In this document: positions 2,985-64,000 of the stretch, one piece after another
Layout: each line of letters opens with the position of its first letter
Numbering within the stretch: the first letter of the stretch is position 1
From: Patescibacteria group bacterium
Lineage (GTDB): Bacteria; Patescibacteriota; Patescibacteriia; Patescibacteriales; JBAZCA01
DNA length: 64,000 nt
Assembly (NCBI GenBank): GCA_041671125.1
Contig: JBAZCA010000001.1
Span: forward strand, 136,120 to 200,119
Direction: 5' to 3'
Notes under the pieces: model-generated
What the model saw: only the letters and a program-made list of their open reading frames with translations
Told to the model about the DNA's origin: nothing
The model's database searches: none
Made by a program: the position numbers and the translations under genes

Positions 2985-4358
2985 CTATACCATCCTTTCT
3001 TTACCAAATTTTACTTTTACCAGCCGGCCGGTAAACCCCCTATCGCGATCATCTTCCTTTTCCCGGTTTTTCCTGCCGGTCTTATCTTTAACGATCAACG
3101 ATTTATCAAAAGCAATATCAAAATAATATTCTGATTTGCCAATAAGCTTATCACCCGCCTTTTTCCCGCCAACAATAACGTAGAGTTCGCGGCCGATAAA
3201 TTTCTTTTCGTATTCACGGGAGAGCGCCTCACCGAGCATTTTGAGTTTTTTCACGCGCCTTTGTTTTATTTCATCACTAACAGCTCCGGGCATTTTCGCG
3301 GCCGGAGTTTTTTCATGGGCGGAAAAAGGAAAAACATGCAAACGGCTAAATTTTATTTCTTTAATGAAATTATAAGTGCCCATGAAGTCGGCTTCGGTTT
3401 CGCCGGGAAAACCGACAATAATGTCTGTCGTTATGGCGATATCAGGCATTAATTTCCTGATATTCTTAATTCTTAATTCGTAATTCTTAACCCCATACGG
3501 CCGGTTCATGAGCTTTAAAATTTTATCCGATCCTGATTGCAGAGGAATATGCAAATGCTTGCACATCTTATTATTCCCGCTAAGAAGCCTGATCAACCTG
3601 TCGTTCACTTCGGTAATTTCAATGGAGCTCAGCCTCACCCGCCCTAAATTTTCTATTCTTATAACCTTCCTTAATAAATTAACCAAATTTGATTGATCTT
3701 CCCCTTTTCTAATTTCCGGCTTCTCACTTCTAACTTCCAACTTCTTGCTTCCCGAATCTTTCCCATACAACCCCAAATGGATCCCGCATAAAATGATCTC
3801 GCGAAAACCGTTTTTTACTGCCTCGTTAATTTCCGCGATCACTTCGTCCTTATCGCGGCTTTTTAATTTTCCCCGGGCATAAGGAATAACGCAGTATGAG
3901 CAAAACTGTTCGCACCCGTCCTGGACTTTAATAAAATATCGGGATCGGTCACCGTTTCCCGGACTGCCGGTTTGATGGCATGCTAATAACTCTAAATTTT
4001 GATTTGTAACTTTTAACTCTGAATTTTTAATTTTTAATTTTGAAACAAAGCTTTCCAGCCGCTGTTCATCCGCAACAATTTCTGCATCCCGCAAGCCATC
4101 AATTTCATACACCTTAGGCCAGCAACCGGTCACGATTATGCGCGCTCCGGGGTTTTCCTTCCGCGCCCTATTTATCATTTGCCGGCCTTTTTGGATCGCG
4201 ATTTTTGTTACGGCGCAGGTATTAATAATTACTAGGTCAGCATCATTTTTTACCAGGCTGAAACCGGCCGCCTTAAGCTTTCCGGCCAAAGTCCGCGAAT
4301 CATACTGGTTGACTTTACACCCGAGAGTGTAAATTTTATATTTATTTTCCCGAACCAT
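2985..4358 (-). CDS. mtaB: MtaB-like radical-SAM methylthiotransferase (MiaB/RimO family)
   Basis: YTLGCKVNQYDS N-terminal UPF0004 motif, CxxxCxxC radical-SAM box (CEQFCSYCVIP) and a C-terminal TRAM-like region. Start placed at MVRENKYKIY; the ORF track extends to 4436. Confidence 0.8.
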   Translation of the reverse strand: MVRENKYKIYTLGCKVNQYDSRTLAGKLKAAGFSLVKNDADLVIINTCAVTKIAIQKGRQMINRARKENPGARIIVTGCWPKVYEIDGLRDAEIVADEQRLESFVSKLKIKNSELKVTNQNLELLACHQTGSPGNGDRSRYFIKVQDGCEQFCSYCVIPYARGKLKSRDKDEVIAEINEAVKNGFREIILCGIHLGLYGKDSGSKKLEVRSEKPEIRKGEDQSNLVNLLRKVIRIENLGRVRLSSIEITEVNDRLIRLLSGNNKMCKHLHIPLQSGSDKILKLMNRPYGVKNYELRIKNIRKLMPDIAITTDIIVGFPGETEADFMGTYNFIKEIKFSRLHVFPFSAHEKTPAAKMPGAVSDEIKQRRVKKLKMLGEALSREYEKKFIGRELYVIVGGKKAGDKLIGKSEYYFDIAFDKSLIVKDKTGRKNREKEDDRDRGFTGRLVKVKFGKERMV

Positions 4359-7526: not shown

Positions 7527-7841
7527 TTAGGCCGCGATCTTCGTGATTTCCACTTTGGTATAAGCCTGGCGGTGGCCTTTGGTTCGGAGATAGCGGATCT
7601 TATTCTTATACTTCACCACGGTTATTTTCTTCCCTTTCGCGGTTTCAATGATTTTTCCGGTTACTTTTTCACCGAGGCTCGGCGCGCCTAAATCCAGTTT
7701 GGCGCCGTCGTCCGAAGCGATCATTAAGGTTTCAAACATAACACTGGCGTCTTTTTCGCCGTCCAATTTTTCAATCCTTAAAGACTGCCCTTCTTTGACT
7801 TTATATTGTTTTCCTCCGGTTTTTATTACTGCGATAGACAT
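7527..7841 (-). CDS. rplU: 50S ribosomal protein L21
   Basis: MSIAVIKTGGKQYKVKEGQ...KGHRQAYTKVEI is canonical L21. Confidence 0.95.
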   Translation of the reverse strand: MSIAVIKTGGKQYKVKEGQSLRIEKLDGEKDASVMFETLMIASDDGAKLDLGAPSLGEKVTGKIIETAKGKKITVVKYKNKIRYLRTKGHRQAYTKVEITKIAA

Positions 7842-7961
7842 ATCAAATCAATTTTTAATTTTTAATTTTTAATTTTTAATGAATCTTCAAATTCACTAAA
7901 AACTATTGCGAGCTGATTATTGTAAATCTTAAATAAAAATAAGCTCTGAAAGCTTCTCTAT

Positions 7962-21348: not shown

Positions 21349-21930
21349 CTATCGGTCATAATTATTAACCGCCGCGATAAAGGTGGTAAAATTGAATTTT
21401 AAATCCTGAATTCCCTCTTCCGCGAGATCCAAGTCATATAATTCGGCGCAAACTTTCGGCGCGATAACCGCCGTGGTCTTAGGGATTACTTCGTCGGCTA
21501 AATCTTTGGCAGCCGTCGCCGTATCCGGATACTCGTTTAATTCAGCCTGGGGCCATTTTCTTTTTAAATACATCCGGCATTGGCGGAGCGCCTGCTGGTG
21601 CGAGGTGATGGCGTCAATTTTTTTCAGGTCCGCGCCTTTCTTCATTAAAAGGTTCATCTTAATATCAATTTCAAACATTTTTTCAATCTGGAAAATATGG
21701 CGAGCCATGGCTTCAACCGCTTCTACTACGATTCCGCCATTAGAATTCTCAATCGGAAAAATGCCGATATTTATTTTTCCCTTCCCGAGCGACCGCAAAA
21801 CATTCTCAACCGAAGTGAGATATTCCAACTCGTAATGCTCCAGCTTTTCCTCCCGGGCGTAATGTTTGGCGGCTTCTTCGGTAAAACTTCCCCGGTTTCC
21901 CGAAACGCCAATGATGATTTTAGCGGACAT
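21349..21930 (-). CDS. pheA: Prephenate dehydratase, catalytic domain only (no ACT domain)
   Basis: GVSGNRGSFTEEAA...IFPIENSNGGIV...ITSHQQALRQC are PDT motifs. 193 aa. Confidence 0.85.
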   Translation of the reverse strand: MSAKIIIGVSGNRGSFTEEAAKHYAREEKLEHYELEYLTSVENVLRSLGKGKINIGIFPIENSNGGIVVEAVEAMARHIFQIEKMFEIDIKMNLLMKKGADLKKIDAITSHQQALRQCRMYLKRKWPQAELNEYPDTATAAKDLADEVIPKTTAVIAPKVCAELYDLDLAEEGIQDLKFNFTTFIAAVNNYDR

Positions 21931-22070
21931 AAAATTAAATTTTTAATTCCTAATTTTTAATTTTTAAACAATTTCCAATGAATTAATTTCTAAATTTTTA
22001 AATTGAAAAATTCAAAATTGTTTGAAAATTAAAAATTGAAAATTGAAAATTAATAATGAATCATTAAACA
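21931..22070. repeat. Family E AT-rich long hairpin (aattttcaa/ttgaaaatt units)
   Basis: Arms aatttttaatttttaaacaatttccaatgaattaatttctaaattt and aaattgtttgaaaattaaaaattgaaaattgaaaatt. The same family occurs at 7845, 27016, 45897, 56651 and 57035. Confidence 0.7.
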
Positions 22071-27015: not shown

Positions 27016-27120
27016 ATCTTCAATTATCAATGATCAATTTTCAATCAATTTTCAATTAAGCAATTTTAAAATTTAGAAATTAATTCATTTAAAATTGTTT
27101 AAAAATTTAAAATTTTCCGA
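27016..27120. repeat. Family E AT-rich hairpin repeat
   Basis: caattatcaatgatcaattttcaatcaattttcaattaagcaattttaaaatttagaaattaattcatttaaaattgtttaaaaatttaaaatt. Confidence 0.65.
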
Positions 27121-34769: not shown

Positions 34770-34886
34770 AAGCAAATTTTTCCATTCCATCAAAATTTTT
34801 GAATTATGATTTATGAATTAAGAATAATTTCTTATCACTAAATATTCATAAATCATAATTCATCATTCATTTTTTATAGCATCATT

Positions 34887-41357: not shown

Positions 41358-41441
41358 AAATATTCGCGCGTAACATATAACATGGAACATATTCTTTCGC
41401 TCATGTTACGTGTTATGTGTTACGTGTTATGTTTTTTTAAT

Positions 41442-45896: not shown

Positions 45897-46050
45897 AGAT
45901 AATTTTCAATTTCAAATTTTCAATTTCTAAACAATTTTCAATGAATTAATTTCTAAATTTTATTCCGAATCACCGGATTAATTAAAAATTTAAAAATTGG
46001 AAATTGTTTGAAAATTAGAAATTGAAAATTGAAAATTTTACTTGTTACTG
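45897..46050. repeat. Family E AT-rich long hairpin
   Basis: Arms ttttcaatttcaaattttcaatttctaaacaattttcaatgaattaatttctaaatttt and aaaaatttaaaaattggaaattgtttgaaaattagaaattgaaaattgaaaat. Confidence 0.7.
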
Positions 46051-48309: not shown

Positions 48310-48399
48310 TAAATAAACAAACCTCATATCTCATAACTTTGTTTCAGAATAAAAGTTACGATTTATGAGATATGAGTTATGAGATATGAGTTACGAGTT

Positions 48400-50394
48400 A
48401 TGAGTAATAAAACCGCTTTTGAAAAAATTATAGAAGATCATCTTAAAAAAACTCTTCCAGACGGGAGACTGATATTAAGGCTGGACTGGGTTTGGGGCCA
48501 TGAAATTACGACCCCGAACGCCATTTTAGACATGAAAGCCCGGGGCATTAATTCGGTTTTTAATCCTAACCGGATTAAGCTCATGATTGACCATGTCAAT
48601 CCCCCGAAAGACACAGCTTCGGCCATCCAGGCAAAAATTATAAGGGACTTCGCGCGCGAAATGGATATTGAATTCCTTGAAGTCGGACGGAACGGGGTCT
48701 GCCACGCGGTCATTCCGGAAAAAGGCTGGATCGCGCCGGGCCAGATCGGCATCATGGGCGACTCGCACACTTCCACCCACGGCGCGTTCGGCGCTTTTAC
48801 CGCCGGGGTCGGCACGACTGACCTTGAAAACGCGCTAATCACCGGTTTATGGATTTGTCCGCCCCAGAAAGTTATTCGCGTTAATTTTATTGGTGAGCTT
48901 CCGAAAAACGTTTTCGCCAAAGACTTAGCCTTAACGCTTATAAAAAAAATCGGGGTTAAGGGCGCTACTAACGCGGTCCTTGAATTCGGCGGTCCGATAA
49001 TTTCCGGTTTAAGCATGGAAGGTCGGATGACAATTTCCAATATGGCGATTGAAGCCGGAGCGAGCTCGGGATTAATGCCGATTGACGAGAAAACCATTGA
49101 TTATCTCTGGCTCTCGCTTAAAAAAAAGTATGGCTCAAAAAAAGCGGCGCTGGATGAATTATCAAAATGGAACAGCGACGAAGGCGCCGAATACGAAAAA
49201 ACCGTTGAAATTAGCGCGAGCGAATTAACGCCGGTCATTACTGATAATTACTCACCCGAAGACGTCCATCCGGTTAAAAAATTGGCGGGCAAAAAGATTG
49301 ACCAGGTCTATATCGGCTCCTGCACCAACGGCCGGATTTCCGACTTACGAATCGCGGCCGGAGTATTTAAAACATTCGGCTCCTCCCCCTTACTAAGGGG
49401 GAGGCTGGGAGGGGGTAGCGTCCATAAAAACGCAAGATGCATTGTCGTTCCGGCCAGCCAGCATATTTACAGCCGAGCCATGAGGGAAGGCTTAATAGAC
49501 ATATTTTTAAAAGCCGGCTGTCTCGTCAGCGCGCCGACTTGCGGCGCCTGTCTCGGGATGAGTAACGGAGTGATTGCTCCGGGTGAAACCTGCGTTTCTA
49601 CGACCAACCGGAACTTTCCCGGCCGGATGGGCAAAGGCGGCATGGTGCACTTGGCCTCGCCCCTGACCGCCGCGCTCACGGCCATAGAGGGAAAAATTTC
49701 CGAACCGGGTATTGAGCTCGGAAAAAAAACCGAAGCGTTTATTTTGGCTCTGCCAGAATCCAAAGAACCGCCCCAAGCTTTAACCGGCTGGAAAGAGAAG
49801 ACTGTTCCTCTTCCTGATTTTAAGAACCTGCTAAAAACCATAAGCGCCGGCAAAGAAAAAAACTTCTCCGGAGAAGTTTTTTACCTGCCGATAAAAAATG
49901 TTGACACTGACCAGATAATCCCGGCTCGCTACTTAACCGAAACTGATAAAACCGAACTCGGGAAGCATTGCCTTGAAGACGCGGGACTCACGGATGAAGA
50001 CAGAAAAAAAATTTATCAGTCGCGGATTTTGGTGGCCGATGAAAATTTCGGTTGCGGTTCGTCCCGCGAGCACGCCCCCTGGGCTCTTGAAGCCGCCGGG
50101 ATAAGATGTATCATTGCTCCATCTTTCGCGAGAATTTTTTACAATAACATGTGGAATAACGGCCTTTTATGCGTTGAACTAAAACCTGAGGAAATTAAAG
50201 AACTATTCCATAACAAACCCGCCAGACTTGATATTGACTGGAATGACGACCGGATCAGGACTGAAGCTAAAAAAGAATATAAATTTAAACTATCAGAGTA
50301 TCAAAAAGAATTAATTCAAAATAACGGTAGTGTCGGCGCCATGCTAAAACTGGCGGTAAAGATTTTTCCTCCCCCTTACCAAGGGGGAGGCTAG
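48400..50394 (+). CDS. leuCD: 3-isopropylmalate dehydratase, fused large and small subunits (LeuC-LeuD)
   Basis: Aconitase-family large subunit (GDSHT, IGSCTNGR, CGACLGM, TNRNFPGRMG). A linker follows, then the small subunit (VDTDQIIPARYL, ENFGCGSSREHA). A family D repeat sits in frame at 49381, and the stop lies in the family D repeat at 50392. Confidence 0.85.
   Translation: MSNKTAFEKIIEDHLKKTLPDGRLILRLDWVWGHEITTPNAILDMKARGINSVFNPNRIKLMIDHVNPPKDTASAIQAKIIRDFAREMDIEFLEVGRNGVCHAVIPEKGWIAPGQIGIMGDSHTSTHGAFGAFTAGVGTTDLENALITGLWICPPQKVIRVNFIGELPKNVFAKDLALTLIKKIGVKGATNAVLEFGGPIISGLSMEGRMTISNMAIEAGASSGLMPIDEKTIDYLWLSLKKKYGSKKAALDELSKWNSDEGAEYEKTVEISASELTPVITDNYSPEDVHPVKKLAGKKIDQVYIGSCTNGRISDLRIAAGVFKTFGSSPLLRGRLGGGSVHKNARCIVVPASQHIYSRAMREGLIDIFLKAGCLVSAPTCGACLGMSNGVIAPGETCVSTTNRNFPGRMGKGGMVHLASPLTAALTAIEGKISEPGIELGKKTEAFILALPESKEPPQALTGWKEKTVPLPDFKNLLKTISAGKEKNFSGEVFYLPIKNVDTDQIIPARYLTETDKTELGKHCLEDAGLTDEDRKKIYQSRILVADENFGCGSSREHAPWALEAAGIRCIIAPSFARIFYNNMWNNGLLCVELKPEEIKELFHNKPARLDIDWNDDRIRTEAKKEYKFKLSEYQKELIQNNGSVGAMLKLAVKIFPPPYQGGG
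49381..49420. repeat. Family D half-element in frame within leuC
   Basis: tcctcccccttactaagggggaggctgggagggggtag encodes ...SSPLLRGRLGGGS... Confidence 0.75.
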
Positions 50395-50446
50395 GAGGGG
50401 GTTGTTTTTCCTCCCCCTTACCAAGGGGGAGGCTAGGAGGGGGTTG
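50363..50446. repeat. Perfect tandem duplication of a 42 bp family D unit
   Basis: tttttcctcccccttaccaagggggaggctaggagggggttg occurs at 50363-50404 and again at 50405-50446. It contains the leuCD stop codon (TAG at 50392-50394). Confidence 0.85.
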
Positions 50447-50448
50447 TG

Positions 50449-50868
50449 ATGACCAGAATCTTTAATCTAAAAGCTAAAAAAGAAATCAGGAAAAAGCTTA
50501 GAGCGCAGACTCATGTTGTCAGCTGTGAAAAACTACTTTGGTATAAATTAAGAAAATCTCAGTTAAATTATAAATTCAGAAGGCAACACGGAATCGGAAA
50601 TTACGTAGTTGATTTCTACTGCCCCCGACTAAAGATAGTAATTGAAGTTGATGGCGCCACCCATTCAAGTGACAGGGAAATTCAGTATGATAATTTAAGA
50701 GAAAATTATTTAAAGAGTTTAGGATTAGTCGTGAAGAGATATTTTAATCACGATATTAAATATAGCTTGGGCGCTGTGTTAAGCGATATAAATGAAACTT
50801 GCTTAAAACGAGTTAATCAGCACAAACCCCTCCCTAACCCTCCCCTTCTTAAGGGGAGGGGAAAATTT
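50449..50868 (+). CDS. DUF559 (Vsr-like endonuclease fold) domain ORF with no stop codon before leuB
   Basis: EKLLWYKLRKSQLNYKFRRQHGIGNYVVDFYCPRLKIVIEVDGATH is the DUF559 signature. It is flanked by inverted family D arms and runs in frame into the leuB ATG at 50869. Confidence 0.7.
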
Positions 50869-56038: not shown

Positions 56039-56650
56039 TTACTCAAGTATTCCGTCAATATTGACGTCATACAAAATCTTCTCCTGAATATGGGTGTATT
56101 TAACGATTTCTTCCGGTTTAAACCAGTTGGGAATTTCCTTTTCCGCTTCCTCAACCGCTCCCGAAGCGTGGATAAGGTTCCGCACCGAGCGGCTGTCCAT
56201 GTCGGCCATGGCGTAAGAATCCAAAGTGAAATCGCCGCGAACGGTTCCGACGTCGGATGATAACGGTTCGGTCGCGCCGGTAATTTTCCGGACTAATCCG
56301 ACCGCGTGCGCTCCCTGCCAGACCATAGCGATAACCGGTCCCGAGGCTAAATATTTAGCGTTTGATTTTAAGACCGCCATGCCGTTTTCGCGGTTAGTCT
56401 TATAGGGCGAAGTAAGGCCTTTTTTCTCATAAGCCGCTCTCGCCTTTCTTCCCACTTCTTCCAGCCATGCTTCTCCGCCGACGTCGTAATAATGCTTCTC
56501 CGCCATTTCCAAGCCAGCTACGGTAATTTTTAAGCCGATTAACTTCAGCCCCACCCGCTCGTAGCGGCGAATAATTTCGCCGATTAAAGACCTCTGCACG
56601 CCGTCAGGCTTTATAATGACAAGTGTTCGTTCGTTTTTTGGATGAGACAT
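56039..56650 (-). CDS. ndk: Nucleoside diphosphate kinase (long form with an internal insertion)
   Basis: TLVIIKPDGVQR and NLIHASG (catalytic His region). There is an extra segment of about 50 aa relative to 140-150 aa Ndk proteins. Confidence 0.85.
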   Translation of the reverse strand: MSHPKNERTLVIIKPDGVQRSLIGEIIRRYERVGLKLIGLKITVAGLEMAEKHYYDVGGEAWLEEVGRKARAAYEKKGLTSPYKTNRENGMAVLKSNAKYLASGPVIAMVWQGAHAVGLVRKITGATEPLSSDVGTVRGDFTLDSYAMADMDSRSVRNLIHASGAVEEAEKEIPNWFKPEEIVKYTHIQEKILYDVNIDGILE

Positions 56651-56689
56651 AAATAGAATTTTTAATTTTTATAATTTTTAATTTTTAAA
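56651..56689. repeat. Family E arm flanking the four-helix-bundle gene (left)
   Basis: aatagaatttttaatttttataatttttaatttttaaatt is an approximate reverse complement of 57035-57073. Confidence 0.7.
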
Positions 56690-57034
56690 TTATGCATCAC
56701 AACTTTTAGATATTTTGGCAAAAATCAATGTTAATTCATGAGATTCTTTCCATAATTTTCTGCATCGGTCTTTTTCTTCGGGAATAGCAATAGCTATCAT
56801 TCTCAGCCAATGTTTAGTTTCATTGGCTTCTTTTTGGCAAATTTTTATTTTATTTCGGAAATCTTTCTTCGAGCTTGCCTGATTTGCCTCCATATAATTC
56901 GCCCCGATACTAGTCGCCGATCTTATGAATTGATTTATGAGTGACCGGTTTACTTCATTTTTCTTAACTTTCAAACAAAAATAAACAGCATCTTCTCCAT
57001 ATTTTGCGGTCCTTTCCTCTAAATCGTACCGCAT
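56690..57034 (-). CDS. Four-helix-bundle protein (23S rRNA intervening-sequence protein family)
   Basis: LINQFIRSATSIGANYMEANQASSKKDFRNKIKICQKEANETKHWL matches the family signature QLxRSxxSIxANIxEG...KDF...E. Confidence 0.8.
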   Translation of the reverse strand: MRYDLEERTAKYGEDAVYFCLKVKKNEVNRSLINQFIRSATSIGANYMEANQASSKKDFRNKIKICQKEANETKHWLRMIAIAIPEEKDRCRKLWKESHELTLIFAKISKSCDA

Positions 57035-57073
57035 ACAATCATTAAAAATTTAAAAATTATAAAATTAAAAATT
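57035..57073. repeat. Family E arm flanking the four-helix-bundle gene (right)
   Basis: caatcattaaaaatttaaaaattataaaattaaaaattc. Confidence 0.7.
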
Positions 57074-57535
57074 CTATCTGATGTATTTCTCCACTTTTTC
57101 AACGATTTGCGCCGGAGTAAGGTCGGCTTTAACGACGTAATCCGAAGCGCCCATTTTTTTTCCTTTTTCTATGTCTTCGGTCGTGCCGAGGTTGGTCATG
57201 ATAATAACCGGCGTGTCTTTCATCCCGGGAGCGGCCTTAATTTCGGCTAAAACCGAAAAACCGTCAACCATCGGCATCATGATATCCAATAAAATCAAAT
57301 CCGGCTTTTCTTTTTTCGCGAGCAAAAGGCCCTCGTTGCCGTCGCTCGCCGTAAGGGCGATAAATCCATGATCTTCAAGCTTCATCTTATACATGCCCGA
57401 GATCATCGTATCGTCTTCAATTATCAGCACCTTTTTTTTACTACTCCCTTTCTTGCTTTCCCCGCTTTTTTCTTTTATTTCGTCTTTTTTGTTTTTAGGC
57501 ATAAACTTAGTAAACAGTAAATAGTAAACAGACAA
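57074..57535 (-). CDS. Stand-alone response regulator receiver (CheY-like) protein
   Basis: VLIIEDD, DLILLDIMMPMVDG (phospho-acceptor Asp) and IIMTN...K motifs. No output domain. Confidence 0.85.
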   Translation of the reverse strand: MSVYYLLFTKFMPKNKKDEIKEKSGESKKGSSKKKVLIIEDDTMISGMYKMKLEDHGFIALTASDGNEGLLLAKKEKPDLILLDIMMPMVDGFSVLAEIKAAPGMKDTPVIIMTNLGTTEDIEKGKKMGASDYVVKADLTPAQIVEKVEKYIR

Positions 57536-57603
57536 CAGTAAGCAGTAAAAATAAAATCTATTTACTGTTTACTATTGTCTATTTACTTCTTATCATATCA
57601 GCC

Positions 57604-58146
57604 TTATCTTAAAATTTCAACCCTTGCCCCGTCGCTTACAATCTTTATCGTTCCCGCCTCGTCGGTCCGGAAAACTTTTGCTCCGGCGCGCTCCAGCTTT
57701 TTTATCGTCCTTAAACTCGGATGCCCGAATTGGTTATCCTTTCCCACCTCAATTACCGCAATCTCCGGCTTAACTGCTTTTAAAAAATCCTCGCTGGTAG
57801 CCGTGTCCGATCCGTGGTGTCCAATTTTCAATACATCGGCGGATAAGTCAACCCCGCTTTCTAGTATTTCCTTTTCTTCTTCTCTCTCAGCGTCGCCGGT
57901 AAATGAAAAACTGGTATTGCCATATACCAGCCTCGCGACGATTGAAGTATTATTTAAGTTTTCAACTTCTTTATTCAAAAAACTTTCAAGGGGATAAAGT
58001 ATTTCAAGCCGGCAGTTGTCGCCGAGCTTAATCGTCTGCGGCCGGTCAATGATTACCATTGGAATTTTTTTGTCCCGGACAACTTCCAGCCAGGCAATAT
58101 AGTTCGGGCTGTCATGGTTAACGCCGGTGTAAAGAATTTTCTCCAC
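57604..58146 (-). pseudogene. Displaced 3' portion of the ComEC-like MBL-fold gene (attachment-site remnant)
   Basis: The 180 aa product aligns by eye with residues about 108-285 of the 63045..63902 product, with most positions identical. It lacks the N-terminal TM segment and the HxHxDH motif. Confidence 0.7.
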
Positions 58147-58147
58147 C

Positions 58148-59779
58148 TTAAATCTTTCTAAAACGTTTATCAGACCGGTAACATGTATGATATGAACAAT
58201 GTTTTATATCCTCGTCAGTTTTATCTGATATCTCTACTATCGGAAAATAACCAATTATCGTTATTCTATCCTTTAAAAATACGATTTTCTTAATAATCTG
58301 CTGAAGAAAAAATCTTTTTTGTTTTTGGTCTAATGTCCTGGCCTTTTTCTTAGCCGTCTGGCAATACCTACCGATATTTTCGTTTATTTCTTTCCTCTTG
58401 TCCAGTAGCTCAATCTTTGTCTTTGCTTCTCCCAGTCTATTATTAAGCCCCTCGGCTTGATCATCCAGTTCTTCAATTTTCATTTGGTAATTATCCCGGT
58501 CAACCAGTCCGTCGGAATATAAATCCAATAATTTCATTTTTCTTTTGTTGATGTTTTCAATTTGAGCATTTAATGAGTTAATCGCGACTTCTAACTTCCG
58601 TCGGCTTTCGCTTTTTTTATCCCGCAGTATATCAATATACTTTTTTATTATGCTTGGCTGTAAAACCTTTTTAATAACTACATCCCAAACCGCATTTTCC
58701 AAATCTTCTCCAAAAACATAATAATTATCGCATTTTTGCTTTATTACTTCCGGAATATGACTAGAATTTTTTTCCCGATAATTGCATTTATAAACACGTT
58801 TCTTAGTATTCCAGACCGCTCCGGTATAAGTATGGTCGCAAATACCGCATTTTATCAAGCCGCTCAAAAGGTATTTCTCATCAGTTCCCCGATTCATTCT
58901 TTGATTTCTCTTTATTTTTTCCTGGACTCTATTAAAAAGCTCCTCGCTAATTATAGCCGGTATAGGGACGGGTATCCATTCGCTTTCATCTCTCGGCCGG
59001 GTTTTAGTCTTCCTGTTTCTGGCATATCTCGTATTTTTATTATCGCTTTCAATTCTTTCAGCCCGGTTGAAGTAATGCAAGCCGAAATAACTGGTATTTT
59101 TCAATATCCGGCTAATTGAACTTCTGCCCCAAAAATAATTGCCTTGAGCGGTTTTGATTTTTCTTTTTTCAAGGAATTTTATCAGCCCGGTAATGCTAGT
59201 GTCTGTGTTGGCGTAAGTTTCATAAATTAGCCGGACTACTTCGGCGTGTTCCTCATTTATTTTATAATAGCCGTCTGTCTTATCCGTCCTCTTGATATAT
59301 GAATAGCCGAACAACTGACCGCCATCCACGATCTTGCCCCGCCGGGCTTTCTCTTTCCGCCCCCTCATCAGCCTTTCAACTATTTTTGCCTTTTCTAATT
59401 CATTAACCGCTCCCATTACCGTCAAGGTAAATTTATTTTCCGGGTTGTCAATGTAGTTTTTGCCCCTGATTATAATTTTCTTTCCGTATTTCAACAGTTC
59501 GGAGATAATAATATTTTGATAGGTAGAGTCTCTCGCAATCCGGTCAGAGTCTAAAAAATATACCACATCAAAAAGATTGGTTTTTACATCATTTCTTAAC
59601 TCGTCAAGCGCCGGGCGATCCAGCCTTGTTCCAGACCAGCCGTTGTCCGAATACTCCCGGATGAGAATATTGCCGTCTTTTTTGATTTGTTGGATGAGTT
59701 CGCTTTTTTGGCTTTCTATCGTTCCCCGCTCTTCTTGCAAGGACGTGCTCACCCGGGCATAATACACAGCTTTTTCCAT
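58148..59779 (-). CDS. Large serine recombinase (integrase)
   Basis: AVYYARVSTSLQ (catalytic Ser), a resolvase domain, a recombinase domain, a zinc ribbon (CGICDH...YKC) and a coiled coil. Start placed at MEKAVYY. Confidence 0.9.
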   Translation of the reverse strand: MEKAVYYARVSTSLQEERGTIESQKSELIQQIKKDGNILIREYSDNGWSGTRLDRPALDELRNDVKTNLFDVVYFLDSDRIARDSTYQNIIISELLKYGKKIIIRGKNYIDNPENKFTLTVMGAVNELEKAKIVERLMRGRKEKARRGKIVDGGQLFGYSYIKRTDKTDGYYKINEEHAEVVRLIYETYANTDTSITGLIKFLEKRKIKTAQGNYFWGRSSISRILKNTSYFGLHYFNRAERIESDNKNTRYARNRKTKTRPRDESEWIPVPIPAIISEELFNRVQEKIKRNQRMNRGTDEKYLLSGLIKCGICDHTYTGAVWNTKKRVYKCNYREKNSSHIPEVIKQKCDNYYVFGEDLENAVWDVVIKKVLQPSIIKKYIDILRDKKSESRRKLEVAINSLNAQIENINKRKMKLLDLYSDGLVDRDNYQMKIEELDDQAEGLNNRLGEAKTKIELLDKRKEINENIGRYCQTAKKKARTLDQKQKRFFLQQIIKKIVFLKDRITIIGYFPIVEISDKTDEDIKHCSYHTCYRSDKRFRKI

Positions 59780-59849
59780 ACATTTTTTACCACTTATAAA
59801 CATTCCTAAATCGGCAGTTTTTACCAAAGAGAATTAATCAATTTTTATT

Positions 59850-60029
59850 TTAAAGCTTAAAAAATATTTTACTTTTTTCAGCGCTAAAATTTTCCCAAAA
59901 ATCAAGAACCCGCCAATTATGCCCAACCTTGACCGCTTTAAGCCGACCGGAAGCAATCAGCCGATAAACAGATTTCGGCGATATCCTTAGCAACTCGGCT
60001 ACCTCTTTGATAGTAAGAATTTTTTCCAT
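59850..60029 (-). CDS. Excisionase/MerR-type helix-turn-helix protein (59 aa)
   Basis: Own translation: MEKILTIKEVAELLRISPKSVYRLIASGRLKAVKVGHNWRVLDFWENF... This is the typical excisionase-family HTH pattern. One residue below the ORF-track cut-off. Confidence 0.6.
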   Translation of the reverse strand: MEKILTIKEVAELLRISPKSVYRLIASGRLKAVKVGHNWRVLDFWENFSAEKSKIFFKL

Positions 60030-60285
60030 AAGTTTGCTAACTTTAGCTAAATTATGGTTTTATTATATTCCACCAGTCTAGCTTGTAAATAGCTTCCTAT
60101 CTTGTCCCTTTCTGGCCATATCCATTTACTAGCTAAACTTAACCCTGAAAACGTCCCGGTTGGCGAACTATGCCATTAAGGTAATTTCCATTAAAAACCA
60201 AACCGGAACGCTCTCAGGGAAAAAACAGGGTCAATCCGAGCCATTATTGAACACCTCAAGGATCTACTTTTTAAAAACCGAGGTC

Positions 60286-60624
60286 TTAGAAGCCCCCTCT
60301 ATTAATCCGTTCAATAACTCCCGCTTTTCTTCGGAGGCGTAATCCTTCAGGGTCAACCCGCTTGAAGGCGGAAAAGACCTCTTTTCTGGAAAAAGGCAGG
60401 TTATTGCCCTTGACGACATTTAAGATGAACGTCAAGAGGGCTATATCTCGCCAATCCGAACAGCGGTCTTGTTTCCTTAATCGGCGAAAGATAGTTCTAA
60501 CTCGCCTACCTTGCCTCCGGGAATTTAGAATAAATTTAACAATCTCGCCAAAATAACCGTTATCAAGGCTAATACCAAATTTACGTTTTTTCTTTTTGAT
60601 AATCATAATATTGCTGGCCTTCAA
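60286..60624 (-). CDS. Hypothetical basic protein (element-encoded)
   Basis: 112 aa ORF, Arg/Lys-rich. No family recognised. Confidence 0.35.
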   Translation of the reverse strand: MKASNIMIIKKKKRKFGISLDNGYFGEIVKFILNSRRQGRRVRTIFRRLRKQDRCSDWRDIALLTFILNVVKGNNLPFSRKEVFSAFKRVDPEGLRLRRKAGVIERINRGGF

Positions 60625-60658
60625 AAAAACGGAGCTCTCGTTTTTCTAAATCACCAAA

Positions 60659-61492
60659 TTATTTATTAAATGACTTTAAAATATCCTCTAAACTCTGTTC
60701 TTTATAAACTACCCCCTCCAAAAATGACGGCGTGGGATGTATCTTGGAAAGTGGCGGGGGCTTGATTCCTTTTTTGTAGTTCTGATAGACTGTCCAGACG
60801 TAAGCCGCCATGTTCTTAATTTTTTCATGCTTGGGATGAGCGACTTGGCATAACTTGCTTTTTGAAAACCAGCCATAATCACTATCCTCCGAGATAACTT
60901 TTGCCTGCCGCTCATTTAAACCGTAATATTTGACCAAAAATTCATAAAAGCTTTGGTAATTTTTAATCTTTGAAAATCTATCAATATGTTTATTGATATT
61001 GTTTTTATTATCAGCATTATTAGTATTATTAGAGAGCGGAATATCAACCGATTTCTTAATGTTTTTGCCACTTTTCCCTTCCTCGTTGTTCCCTTCATGT
61101 TCCCTCGTAATTTTGTCCGAGTCCTTTCCTTTTCTCGGCTTCCGAGTATTTTTTTGATATGCCGACCAATTCTTAATCGTAATCAGCCTCTCTTTATTGG
61201 TAGTCTTTTGAATAATCATCCCGACCTTTTCAAATAACCTCAGGTTCCGGTGAATATTGCTTTCCGGAATATCGCATAACTCGGATAAAAATTTTCTGGT
61301 CGTTACCACCTGACCGGAGCCGACTGTGCACTCACCACCGCCAAAATAGGTCTTATATCCCCTATGAGCTACTATGAGCAGGAGCTTTGTCCATAAACAC
61401 CAAGAGTCTTTATTCCGATTAATTATCGGGTTGGCAAGGGATTTCCGGTAATACGAAATCCATCCGATGTATTTAGTGTTTATGTCTTTCAT
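60659..61492 (-). CDS. Putative replication/DNA-binding protein (N-terminal winged-helix-like)
   Basis: 277 aa. The N-terminal region ...VVTTRKFLSELCDIPESNIHRNLRLFEKVGMI resembles the wHTH of phage/plasmid replication organisers. This assignment is tentative. Confidence 0.4.
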   Translation of the reverse strand: MKDINTKYIGWISYYRKSLANPIINRNKDSWCLWTKLLLIVAHRGYKTYFGGGECTVGSGQVVTTRKFLSELCDIPESNIHRNLRLFEKVGMIIQKTTNKERLITIKNWSAYQKNTRKPRKGKDSDKITREHEGNNEEGKSGKNIKKSVDIPLSNNTNNADNKNNINKHIDRFSKIKNYQSFYEFLVKYYGLNERQAKVISEDSDYGWFSKSKLCQVAHPKHEKIKNMAAYVWTVYQNYKKGIKPPPLSKIHPTPSFLEGVVYKEQSLEDILKSFNK

Positions 61493-61512
61493 AAAATTTT
61501 ATTTATTATTAG

Positions 61513-61716
61513 CTACTTTTTTTCAAATTGGTCGTCCTCGCCCGACTCTAATAAAAATCTGACCGCTTCAAACAGCCTCCGCTCCGCATCGGTGGCTTCA
61601 TCCGCGCGGACAGGCCGTATTTTAATATTGAATTTTTTTCGCTTATTTTTTTCATACATAAAAGGCCCGGAACTTTTCAGTTGGGCCTTTGATATAAAAC
61701 GAGTAGGCTCAACCAA
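61513..61716 (-). CDS. Hypothetical small protein (element-encoded)
   Basis: 67 aa ORF, co-oriented with the other element genes. Confidence 0.3.
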   Translation of the reverse strand: MVEPTRFISKAQLKSSGPFMYEKNKRKKFNIKIRPVRADEATDAERRLFEAVRFLLESGEDDQFEKK

Positions 61717-61997
61717 AAAAATGAAGATATGAATCCCCTACTACATCGTTCAATACTTCACTTTTTGGCTGAAAGCCTTCTATAATTCTGGATTACGAAC
61801 CGATCTTAACGTCAGTCCGTGGCTTTTCAGTTTAATACATTTTTCAATTATTTAATTGTCCTTACATTTTACACCCGATAGCAATAAATGTCAAGGATTT
61901 TTTGGCTAATATTAGTTATAAACTCTTACAAACAATACCGTTTTATTCGTTATGTTAGCTTAAAAAAATTTCCAAAAATACAACTTTATCACAACCT

Positions 61998-62180
61998 TTA
62001 ATCCTTCAGCCCGTCTAACTCAAGTTCACTTTCTTCTGCCGCTGGAATTTTTGTCTCAAGAATAAAACCGGTTATAATTTCACCGTAAAGTCGTTGCTTC
62101 TCGTCATTGGTTAATTTCCTGTTCAACCGCATTTCCATTTTCCATTTTTTTTCTTTAAAAATTATTTCGTCCTGCTTCAT
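61998..62180 (-). CDS. Hypothetical small protein (element-encoded)
   Basis: 60 aa ORF, 6 nt downstream of the preceding gene. Confidence 0.3.
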   Translation of the reverse strand: MKQDEIIFKEKKWKMEMRLNRKLTNDEKQRLYGEIITGFILETKIPAAEESELELDGLKD

Positions 62181-62186
62181 ACTTTC

Positions 62187-62783
62187 TTAAAATGATAAGT
62201 CTTCATATTTATCGGTTATCCTGCCTGCCCCGGTCTGAACTACCCGTCCGCTCTGAATAACTTCATAAGTAAATCTGTTTATCCCGGCACTACCATGGAC
62301 TGAAGTCGGCCCGGTGCTTAGTTCCGAATATACGATAGTCCCCAAACCCGGGGCAATGGCCTTGCTCGTATCAAAGGTGTCATCCCAAATATCCCTATTC
62401 TCCATACTTATCAGTTTTATTTTTACTGATCCGGTAAAATCTTCTTTTCCCTTATTCCGAATGTCAAAGAAAAACCTGTGCTTACCGGCAACCTTTTTGA
62501 CGATTTGATTAGTCACCTCAATATTAGTTGAATTGGCCTCTATTGCCGCAGGTGCGTTTGAACCAGTATCAACAACCGGAGTAACGCTCGGAGCCTGACT
62601 GCCATTATCCATTTCTTCACTCATAACTGAGATAAAAACGGGAACAAACATAACTACCAATAAAAGTGCTAAAATCGGGTGCTTGCCAAAAAATCCCCTA
62701 ATATCCGAATGACAATGGGGGCACTTGGTCGCTTTTTTATCCACCTGCTCCCTACACTTGGGACAAATTTTTCCGTCTGACAT
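62187..62783 (-). CDS. Zinc-ribbon membrane protein (element-encoded)
   Basis: CPKCREQVDKKATKCPHCHSD zinc ribbon, a TM helix (HPILALLLVVMFVPVFISV), then an extracytoplasmic domain of about 130 aa. Confidence 0.5.
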   Translation of the reverse strand: MSDGKICPKCREQVDKKATKCPHCHSDIRGFFGKHPILALLLVVMFVPVFISVMSEEMDNGSQAPSVTPVVDTGSNAPAAIEANSTNIEVTNQIVKKVAGKHRFFFDIRNKGKEDFTGSVKIKLISMENRDIWDDTFDTSKAIAPGLGTIVYSELSTGPTSVHGSAGINRFTYEVIQSGRVVQTGAGRITDKYEDLSF

Positions 62784-63044
62784 AGCGTTGCGTCATTTTA
62801 GGCAAATTAGATTCGCTTAAAATGATATTAATTTTTACCTGGCCGGAAAACAAAAAGCTCCCCGCCAGCGATAACCATTTCTGGTCATCCATATCCCTTT
62901 CGGAATATGGCCAACCAAGGCATTCTGACGAGGAGTCATTTACCTTGGTTGGACTTTGTGCCATGCCTCAAGCATTAAAATGATTGAAGTTTAGGCTTAA
63001 ATTGTTATTCTAATATTAAAACTTTTTTAAACATTTGTAAACAT

Positions 63045-63902
63045 TCATCTCTGGCTAATAACTGACCCGTTACTAATAAACCTTATAGTGCCCTTTTCAT
63101 CCGTTCTGAAAATATCAGCTTTAATCCGTTCCAACTTTTTTATCGTCCTTAAAGAAGGATGGCCGAAATCATTATCTTTCCCAACTTCAATTACTGCAAT
63201 TTCCGGACTCACCGCTTTTAAAAATTCTTCCCCGGTTGCAGTATCCGAACCGTGGTGTCCAATTTTCAATACATCGGCGGATAAGTCAACCCCGCTTTCT
63301 AGTATTTCCTTTTCTTCCGGCTCTTCAGCGTCGCCCGTAAATAAAAAACTGGTATTGCCATATACCAGCTTCGCGACGATTGAAGTATTATTCAAATTCT
63401 CAACCTCTTTATTTAAAAAACTTTCAAGGGGATAAAGTATTTCCAGCCGGCAGTAGTCCCCGAGCTTAATCGTCTGAGGCCGATCAATGATTATCATGGG
63501 TATTTTTTTCTCTTTAACCGCCTCGAGCCAGGCAATATAATTCGGGCTGTCATGGTTAACTCCGGTATATAAAATTTTTTTTACATCAAACCTGTTTATT
63601 ACTTGGACCAAACCGCTAACGTGGTCATCGTGAGGATGGCTTAATATCATCAAATCAATCTGCTTGTCCCAAGGCGGCAAGACTTCCGACAACCGTTCAA
63701 CCACCCGGGAATTCGGCCCACCATCAATGAGAATATTTTGACCGTCCGGTGCTTCTATTAGTATAGAGTCCCCTTGACCTACATCCAAGAAATCAACTTC
63801 TAACTTTCTTTCAGGGTTATAAAATACCTTGAAAGAAAATACCAAAATAGCAAAAAGAAAAATGCCAATAAGTAAAAACAATTTAAAAAACTTTTTTTGC
63901 AT
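63045..63902 (-). CDS. MBL-fold metallo-hydrolase, ComEC/Rec2 C-terminal-domain-like
   Basis: N-terminal TM helix, DVGQGDS and HPHDDHVSG (HxHxDH) motifs. The 3' ~540 bp appears to be supplied by the integrated element. Confidence 0.85.
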   Translation of the reverse strand: MQKKFFKLFLLIGIFLFAILVFSFKVFYNPERKLEVDFLDVGQGDSILIEAPDGQNILIDGGPNSRVVERLSEVLPPWDKQIDLMILSHPHDDHVSGLVQVINRFDVKKILYTGVNHDSPNYIAWLEAVKEKKIPMIIIDRPQTIKLGDYCRLEILYPLESFLNKEVENLNNTSIVAKLVYGNTSFLFTGDAEEPEEKEILESGVDLSADVLKIGHHGSDTATGEEFLKAVSPEIAVIEVGKDNDFGHPSLRTIKKLERIKADIFRTDEKGTIRFISNGSVISQR

Positions 63903-64000
63903 TTAAGAATTGAATATATCGATTGTTGCTTGCATATCCAACTGATATTTATTTCTAAATAATTTATACCACCAATCAGGAATTAACGGGCTATTTTCTC

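Follow-up and report, generated by a model that had tools for sequence, protein, structure and literature searches.

Gene content of the locus

The window (the whole 64,000-nt stretch of DNA analysed) carries a gene for a four-helix-bundle (4HB) protein between a response regulator gene and ndk. The locus contains the following features.

57592-57620, minus strand: promoter-like site ahead of the regulator gene, TTGAAA-17-TATGAT, with TG
57074-57502, minus strand: single-domain response regulator, gene 1 of the operon, identified by receiver-domain matches
57035-57073, minus strand: upstream (regulator-proximal) arm, T-rich on the coding strand
56690-57034, minus strand: 4HB gene, 114 aa, PF05635/TIGR02436, S23p/IVP family, the cargo at the hairpin tip
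56651-56689, minus strand: downstream (ndk-proximal) arm, A-rich on the coding strand (R-arm HMM, E=2.8e-6)
56039-56650, minus strand: ndk (nucleoside-diphosphate kinase), the downstream cistron

The 114-aa gene exactly fills the gap between the two 39-nt arms, as described in the initial annotation. The window forms part of an 87-kb metagenome contig, and the nearest relatives of ndk were all from Patescibacteria metagenome-assembled genomes. For the regulator, the ORF list held an alternative TTG start at 57535. The site at 57592-57620 was the sole promoter-like site detected for the regulator-4HB-ndk unit, and it was kept in a related metagenome locus (L003) as TTGAAA-17-TATAAT. The 4HB gene had the same orientation as the upstream regulator gene, and neither a promoter nor a terminator of its own was detected. 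A scan and inspection by eye of the two arms gave no convincing promoter- or terminator-like site, and the arms were rejected as candidate promoters. Judging from this arrangement, the cassette is predicted to be co-transcribed with the host regulator-ndk operon. No transposase, reverse transcriptase or nuclease accompanied the cassette among the called genes within 10 kb, and no rRNA was found in the 64-kb window with Rfam.

Arms and predicted RNA stem

The arms had been annotated as approximate reverse complements of each other, and the alignments bore this out. The best gapless inverted repeat paired 56653-56688 with 57042-57077 (36 nt, 86% complementary). The ndk-proximal arm, with its core at 56653-56688, ended 3 nt short of the ndk ATG, and the core at 57042-57077 extended into the TAG stop codon of the regulator. 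With indels allowed, the arms aligned over 41 columns comprising 40 Watson-Crick pairs and one G-U pair. The local alignment score of 62 was far above that of composition-matched shuffles (mean 19.1, maximum 32), which answers the concern that the complementarity might be no better than expected for AT-rich DNA. Both arms consisted of a series of 7-nt units (AATTTTT and variants); on the coding strand, the upstream arm read AATTTTT AATTTTA TAATTTT TAAATTT TTAATGA.

In the predicted transcript, the arms form a stem around the ORF, about 40 bp long and made of A-U pairs. When the coding strand of 56640-57090 was folded, the arms were paired in both the minimum free energy and the centroid structures, with the whole ORF enclosed (z = -5.0 against dinucleotide shuffles).

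One reading, that the ndk-proximal arm copies the local spacer in inverted orientation together with the regulator stop codon, was rejected, since the arm fitted the consensus of its repeat family (family E, see below) and the termini '(T)AGAATTTTT' recurred at other loci.

The four-helix-bundle protein

The 4HB protein matched PF05635 with 56.1 bits (cut-off 33.8), its only Pfam match, and TIGR02436 with 71.1 bits (cut-off 24). Its sequence also matched PDB entry 2rld (BT_0352; E=2.9e-13). A single-sequence structure model was all helical (pLDDT 74.8), and its top fold matches were 2rld and 2gsc (Xcc0516), with weak E-values of 4e-3 to 3e-2. The protein contained R-x3-S-x3-N-x2-E, the conserved core motif of the 4HB family (PMC3936711), as RSATSIGANYME at residues 38-49. 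Searches with Pfam and TIGR profiles revealed no nuclease or recombinase signature, and a known catalytic fold was absent by profile match. PADLOC gave no defence-family match and PHROGs no match, and a search of a phage collection returned two matches, both unannotated.

Related copies in metagenome loci

A scan of metagenome contigs yielded a set of 80 loci with 4HB proteins 68-76% identical, nearly all of which shared the flank layout of the window cassette. Upstream, a variable number of AATTTT(T/G/A) units was followed by TAAATAATTT..TTAA...TTAAATTTTTAAAC and then the ATG; the downstream flank mirrored this as GTTTAAAAATT...ATTTATTTAAAAATTA(T/C)AAAATTAAAAATT. Pairwise arm identity was dropped as a measure of conservation, since shuffled A/T-only arms already align at 0.81, and motif counts and HMM matches were used instead. 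The arm motifs were present in 43-51 of 55 unique copies, compared with about 0.1 in shuffled flanks; AATTTTTAATTTT was found upstream in 51 and AAAATTAAAAATT downstream in 50, each against about 0.1 in shuffles.

Arms were scored against each other over gene-sized ORFs in the 4HB loci, using unique copies with full flanks. A score of at least 40 was reached by 90% of the 4HB genes (n=69) and by 3% of the other genes in the same loci (n=173), so the arms are conserved around other copies of the gene. Arm HMMs gave 172 matches across the 312 kb of 4HB loci, with 152 lying beside the gene, versus 2 matches in 800 kb of other Patescibacteria loci. The 4HB loci also contained nine empty family E hairpins. 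Four-fold degenerate sites of the 4HB ORFs were saturated (identity 0.30, with 0.28 expected at random). It follows that purifying selection acts on the protein and that the arms are not simply young but constrained or homogenised.

The neighbour genes of the family E cassettes formed 76 clusters; the contexts, of which more than 30 were distinct, included pilC-like, ksgA-like, adenosylhomocysteinase-like and dprA-like genes (judged by eye from sequence). The upstream ORF was co-directional with the 4HB gene in 60 of 62 loci. No rRNA motifs were found in the 80 related loci, and the direct link to the rRNA copies of this protein family therefore rests on the literature.

RNAalifold applied to 55 mini-elements gave no consensus structure, owing to variable heptamer numbers and the resulting gaps in the alignment; per-element arm alignments were used in its place. 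Arms paired with their own partner (56.2) no better than with foreign partners (59.3), and G-U mismatches in the stems exceeded A-C mismatches weakly (63 vs 40, counts that are not independent of each other), an asymmetry that a stem at the RNA level would be expected to show. The data therefore do not demonstrate that selection within family E acts on pairing rather than on sequence.

A small GC-rich hairpin (cttgcctaccggcaagcagg in L152 and L157) was nested inside the upstream arm in L152 and L157 relative to L150, and also in L112. Apart from the nested hairpin, the L152, L157 and L150 cassettes were near-identical.

The regulator-ndk junction in relatives

The initial annotation had suggested looking for empty ndk/regulator junctions in relatives, and five junctions lacking the 4HB gene were found (L003, L004, L005, L007 and L071). 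In L003, with 85% nucleotide identity to the window in both genes, regulator and ndk were directly adjacent, with one arm and no 4HB gene. The 28-nt spacer between the regulator stop codon and the ndk ATG (AATTTTTAATTTTGTAATTTTTAAATTT) equalled the regulator-proximal arm of the window at 27 of 28 positions. The window thus holds about 395 nt more than L003, of which 11 nt are inner arm and the rest the ORF plus the second arm. No target-site duplication was found at the window/L003 junctions, just a 4-nt ATTT microhomology. In L004, L005, L007 and L071, the regulator also lay beside ndk, with an unrelated spacer of 42-115 nt and no 4HB gene. The adjacency of regulator and ndk is thus ancestral, with the cassette as a lineage-specific addition. 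Since L003 keeps one arm, the difference is not a clean arm-to-arm insertion polymorphism, and gain and loss are indistinguishable. The cassette may have been present in the common ancestor, with L003 then losing the ORF and one arm, or a solo arm may have come before the cassette.

Empty hairpins, solo arms and other heptamer arrays

Heptamer repeats without a 4HB gene were found at several other places in the window.

21931-22070: empty family E hairpin, arms joined tip to tip, no ORF
45897-46050: empty family E hairpin between two co-directional minus-strand genes
7841-7893, minus strand: solo A-rich arm immediately upstream of rplU; coding strand (AAAAATT)x4
4019-4052: solo arm resembling that at 7841-7893
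27071-27115: solo arm resembling that at 7841-7893
57509-57590: empty hairpin of another heptamer, (AGTAAAC)n, between the promoter and the start of the regulator

The arm HMMs applied to the window were built only from arms on other contigs. Both arms of the hairpins at 21931-22070 and 45897-46050 were matched (E 1e-7 to 7e-4), in agreement with their earlier assignment to family E. By these HMMs, the window held two empty hairpins and three solo arms in total. The (AGTAAAC)n hairpin was missing in L003, which had (ACTTCGC)x2 at that place (L003 5480-5552); empty heptamer hairpins thus also differ between these relatives.

Tandem arrays repeating at exactly 7 nt numbered about 30 in the window, with many different units and several arranged as inverted pairs (for example at 3462, 18538, 34800-34870, 41371-41432, 48354-48405, 55792 and 57509-57590), compared with a single 4HB gene. 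Heptamer hairpins characterise the intergenic spacers of the genome in general. As hairpins without a 4HB gene are far commoner than cassettes, the hairpins could be primary and the gene a lodger.

DUF559 cassette and neighbouring integrated element

Another gene within inverted arms, and an integrated element adjoining the locus, comprised the following features.

50446 (start): DUF559 ORF, between an aconitase-family gene (48379-50394) and leuB
57604-58146: C-terminal fragment of a split ComEC-type gene, abutting the large serine recombinase
58148-59827: large serine recombinase
62870-62997, minus strand: LOOT RNA inside the integrated element (Rfam RF03000, 79.5 bits)
63045-63902: MBL-fold gene in the integrated element

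The initial annotation had drawn a parallel between the 4HB gene and a DUF559 gene in family D repeats. This parallel is real: the DUF559 ORF is bracketed by inverted GC-rich arms, of which the one at 50363-50447 is a tandem pair of 42-nt units and the one at 50826-50862 a single inverted unit. The ORF runs in frame into leuB, the stop codon being absent. The DUF559 unit is a second kind of gene-in-arms cassette with other cargo.

A ComEC-type metallo-beta-lactamase-fold gene was split by an element of about 7.6 kb (window 57604-64000 and beyond; L001 928-8887). In L003, the ComEC-type gene was intact (324 aa). S_4TM and SMODS genes were found in the same element just beyond the window end, and this part of the element looks like a defence module.

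Distant subfamilies and plasmids of other phyla

A profile search of the loci found seven more distant Patescibacteria 4HB genes with sequence on both sides (30-50% mutual identity). Six were bracketed by inverted arms, each of a different tandem heptamer (GAAATCC, AAGTTAC, CAAGGGA and TTTAGGG among them), and the seventh had a heptamer array on one side only. In L100 (2127-2486) and L101 (2120-2491), 4HB cassettes of different subfamilies occupied the same site upstream of orthologous genes; the proteins were 39% identical and the heptamers differed, which suggests a hot spot or cassette replacement.

A tblastn search against plasmids gave 30 records, 12 of which were examined. They were from Nostoc, Anabaena, Planktothrix, Pseudanabaena, Gloeocapsa, Chlorohelix, Treponema, Bernardetia and Chondrinema, and represented the phyla Cyanobacteria, Chloroflexota, Spirochaetota and Bacteroidota. 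All 12 proteins contained the R-x3-S-x3-N-x2-E motif. Most of the genes were wedged between two co-directional genes, in contexts such as drmD/MmeI, DUF1156/Swt1-HEPN (twice), RND adaptor/permease and fabH/hydrolase. On two cyanobacterial plasmids, the 4HB gene lay between cas2 and cas1 on the opposite strand, and expression by read-through is therefore not universal. No reverse transcriptase was annotated in the 12 plasmid neighbourhoods.

The plasmid flanks consisted of (AATTCAA)x4, (AATTCGC)x4, (AATTCGT)x4, AATCCCC/AATCGTA, AGTAAAA, ATTTTAG and GTGGAAA/CTCTCCG units. Those flanking the Planktothrix 4HB gene, AATCCCC, are a permutation of STRR1. The best lag was 7 in 20 of 24 plasmid flanks versus 25 of 264 control windows. 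Inverted repeats exceeded every shuffle in seven of the 12 cassettes and reached 36 nt without mismatch. The heptamer tracked the protein tree: two 73%-identical proteins had AATTCGC and AATTCGT, and ATTTTAG was common to two 71%-identical 4HB proteins from different phyla. The latter pair, L171 (Chlorohelix) and L173 (Gloeocapsa), shared the gene order DUF1156 - 4HB - Swt1-HEPN together with the heptamer, and this module probably moved between phyla as one piece.

In three Nostoc cassettes, 30 of 30 arm pairs were kept, eight of them through changes on both sides; the arms were excised by hand and joined by an artificial loop, and the eight pairs represent two positions repeated four times. 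Related Nostoc plasmids lacking the 4HB gene had another small ORF at that position, and the differing stretch spanned from arm to arm and replaced part of this resident ORF. The cassette took the place of the middle or the N-terminal part of the small host ORF (L168 vs L176, L169 vs L175). About 190-360 nt of host sequence was missing under the cassette at these sites, and no clean insertion was seen.

Comparison with known systems

In the 23S rRNA intervening sequence (IVS) of Coxiella, the ends pair into a 28-bp stem, the loop holds an S23p ORF preceded by three or four tandem GACAGAT units, and RNase III excises the element (PMC4990558). The window cassette resembles such ORF-bearing IVSs (Coxiella burnetii, Leptospira; PMC4990558) in carrying an S23p/IVP ORF in the loop, in terminal inverted repeats that form a stem of at least 28 bp enclosing the ORF, in tandem heptamers beside the ORF (AATTTTT in place of GACAGAT) and in being transcribed within the host RNA without a promoter of its own, the last as predicted from its position. 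It differs in lying between protein-coding genes rather than inside an rRNA helix, in arms that are nearly all heptamers and in the ORF-less copies dispersed in the genome. RNase III excision has been demonstrated for the 23S IVS, whereas for the window cassette it would follow by analogy. That IVSs are mobile and that the ORF serves this mobility is an old proposal (PMC4990558, citing Ralph and McClelland 1993). IVP ORFs occur in 16S and 23S insertions of CPR bacteria (PMC11270868), and earlier work has noted 4HB genes embedded in cas loci (PMC3936711).

The empty hairpins at 21931-22070 and 45897-46050 correspond to MITEs (miniature transposable elements with inverted repeats) of the Correia/NEMIS type; family E shares with them terminal inverted repeats and dispersed ORF-less copies. 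Correia/NEMIS of Neisseria and other MITEs are short dispersed intergenic elements with terminal inverted repeats that are co-transcribed with flanking genes, and the RNA hairpins of Correia/NEMIS are RNase III substrates. In Correia elements the target duplication is TA, and there is no coding version. Family E, in contrast, shows no target duplication, has tandem-heptamer arms and exists in a coding version with a gene other than a transposase. A transposase-bearing parent element for family E was sought, and no transposase lay within 10 kb. The REP/RAYT systems (REPtron, REPIN-RAYT) consist of a small gene flanked by inverted palindromic repeats that are also scattered without the gene. Repeat sequence and RAYT gene co-vary between lineages, and RAYT is a Y1 HUH transposase. 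The cassette is similar in its single small gene with inverted flanking repeats and in the co-variation of repeat and gene. Unlike RAYT, the window gene encodes a four-helix bundle with PF05635 as its sole Pfam match.

Inverted pairs of heptamer arrays have been described in Xanthomonas and Nostoc with no gene linked to them (PMC4692102). The STRR heptanucleotide repeats of cyanobacteria and the GGGAATC pairs of Xanthomonas (PMC4692102) resemble the cassette arms in being intergenic tandem 7-nt units, often as convergent pairs capable of forming a stem-loop. In the searched literature, no gene is linked to these repeats, whereas the cassette heptamers bracket 4HB genes. A full-text literature search gave no paper connecting 4HB genes with inverted heptamer arms, and the cross-phylum heptamer rule is apparently undescribed within the literature searched.

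Avd, the accessory protein of diversity-generating retroelements, acts with a reverse transcriptase on structured RNA. No Avd gene is known from a heptamer hairpin. Like the window protein, Avd is a small basic helical bundle, and it belongs to the same Pfam family, PF05635 (PMC10053308). Unlike Avd systems, the window gene has neither a reverse transcriptase nor template/variable repeats nearby: the direct repeats near it were just short chance matches, with no template/variable repeat pair.

Nature of the cassette and alternative explanations

The gene and its arms are a conserved unit that occurs at many unrelated intercistronic sites in Patescibacteria and varies between relatives. We consider it likely (probability about 0.7) that the window gene with its arms is a copy of a selfish IVS-type hairpin cassette, consisting of an S23p/IVP gene within tandem-heptamer inverted repeats. 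The recurrence of the gene-in-hairpin layout, with tandem 7-base units around 4HB relatives in at least five phyla, points to a widespread kind of mobile cassette. The initial proposal of cassette-in-a-hairpin mobility outside rRNA is supported by the many sites with neighbours in 76 clusters, the absence of the cassette from the junction in five relatives, the empty family E hairpins and an anatomy matching the Coxiella 23S IVS.

By analogy with rRNA IVSs, the long stem formed by the arms would be a target of RNase III. Its cleavage would set the 4HB message free, part the cistrons on either side without harm to them, and unmask the ndk start, which lies 3 nt past the stem. The element would thus act as an IVS placed in mRNA. 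Harmless cutting would account for the tolerance of such cassettes in only two kinds of place, the tips of rRNA helices and the gaps between genes. A search for an RNase III signature, in sequences that comprised genome fragments only, gave none. Spread of the cassette may take place at the DNA level and use the inverted repeats, either in transposition or in recombination into hairpins that are already there. The 4HB protein, the sole constant companion of the arms, is for this reason a candidate for the element's own factor, and plausibly binds the 7-nt repeats. The units are uniform inside each arm and from one arm to another, which demands either a homogenising process or a protein able to read in 7-nt steps.

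An alternative, which we regard as unlikely, is that the heptamer hairpins are primary, being MITE- or REP-like sequences that are either mobilised by an enzyme from another locus or retained as signals for RNA processing or stability, and that the 4HB gene is cargo at the tip with another role, for example in defence. Empty hairpins and solo arms do outnumber the cassettes, with about 30 period-7 arrays and one 4HB gene in the window, and the empty (AGTAAAC)n hairpin is itself present in the window and absent in L003. A different arm family carries the DUF559 gene, the 4HB protein is devoid of a nuclease or recombinase signature, and 4HB genes are often found in cas, DISARM and restriction loci. 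However, each 4HB subfamily has its own heptamer, which follows the protein tree across phyla and is not expected of a repeatedly captured passenger. Family E arms are almost confined to the vicinity of family E 4HB genes, and the PADLOC result argues against the defence role.

Two further explanations seem very improbable to us. According to one, the arms are ordinary AT-rich leader, promoter or terminator DNA, complementary through a shared low-complexity motif, and the 4HB gene is an ordinary resident. Both arms are indeed low-complexity heptamer tracts, and A-rich arms lie directly upstream of unrelated start codons (rplU at 7841, genes at 21930 and 45896). Against this, inverted flanks of such a kind surround only 3% of other genes, arm HMM matches are near-absent (2) from 800 kb of other Patescibacteria, complementarity is far above that of composition-matched shuffles, no promoter- or terminator-like site was found in the arms, the 4HB gene is missing at the junction in five relatives, and the layout recurs with GC-containing heptamers in other phyla; this explanation is largely refuted. 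According to the other, the cassette moves via RNA: an Avd-like 4HB protein recruits a reverse transcriptase encoded elsewhere, and the excised hairpin RNA is copied and then integrated. The shared Pfam family of Avd (PMC10053308) and the Nostoc cassette, which replaces a stretch of resident ORF in a manner resembling template-directed replacement, would fit such a route. Reverse transcriptase genes were nonetheless absent within 10 kb and unannotated in the 12 plasmid neighbourhoods, and no template/variable repeat pair, poly-A or other retro-element hallmark was found.

Going beyond the selfish IVS-type cassette itself, we tentatively hypothesize, while holding it to be doubtful, that stand-alone PF05635 proteins are the trans-acting factor of bacteria-wide heptamer palindromes, including ORF-bearing rRNA IVSs, STRR and the Xanthomonas GGGAATC repeats. 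Each subfamily would recognise its own 7-nt unit and drive array spread, homogenisation or RNA processing. If true, this would be a mobile-element system without a conventional transposase.

Significance

Since about 1990, the rRNA IVSs and the S23p ORF within them have remained a curiosity in need of explanation. Members of the large 4HB family carry no annotation beyond 'four helix bundle protein' and have been seen in CRISPR-cas and restriction loci without explanation, and the heptanucleotide arrays of cyanobacteria and xanthomonads are likewise unexplained. A gene within inverted heptamer arms ties the IVS ORFs, the 4HB family and the heptanucleotide arrays into one testable object. The cassette sits where an RNA cut without rejoining would do no harm. 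For annotation, the 4HB genes in defence operons are probably lodgers and not components of these systems.
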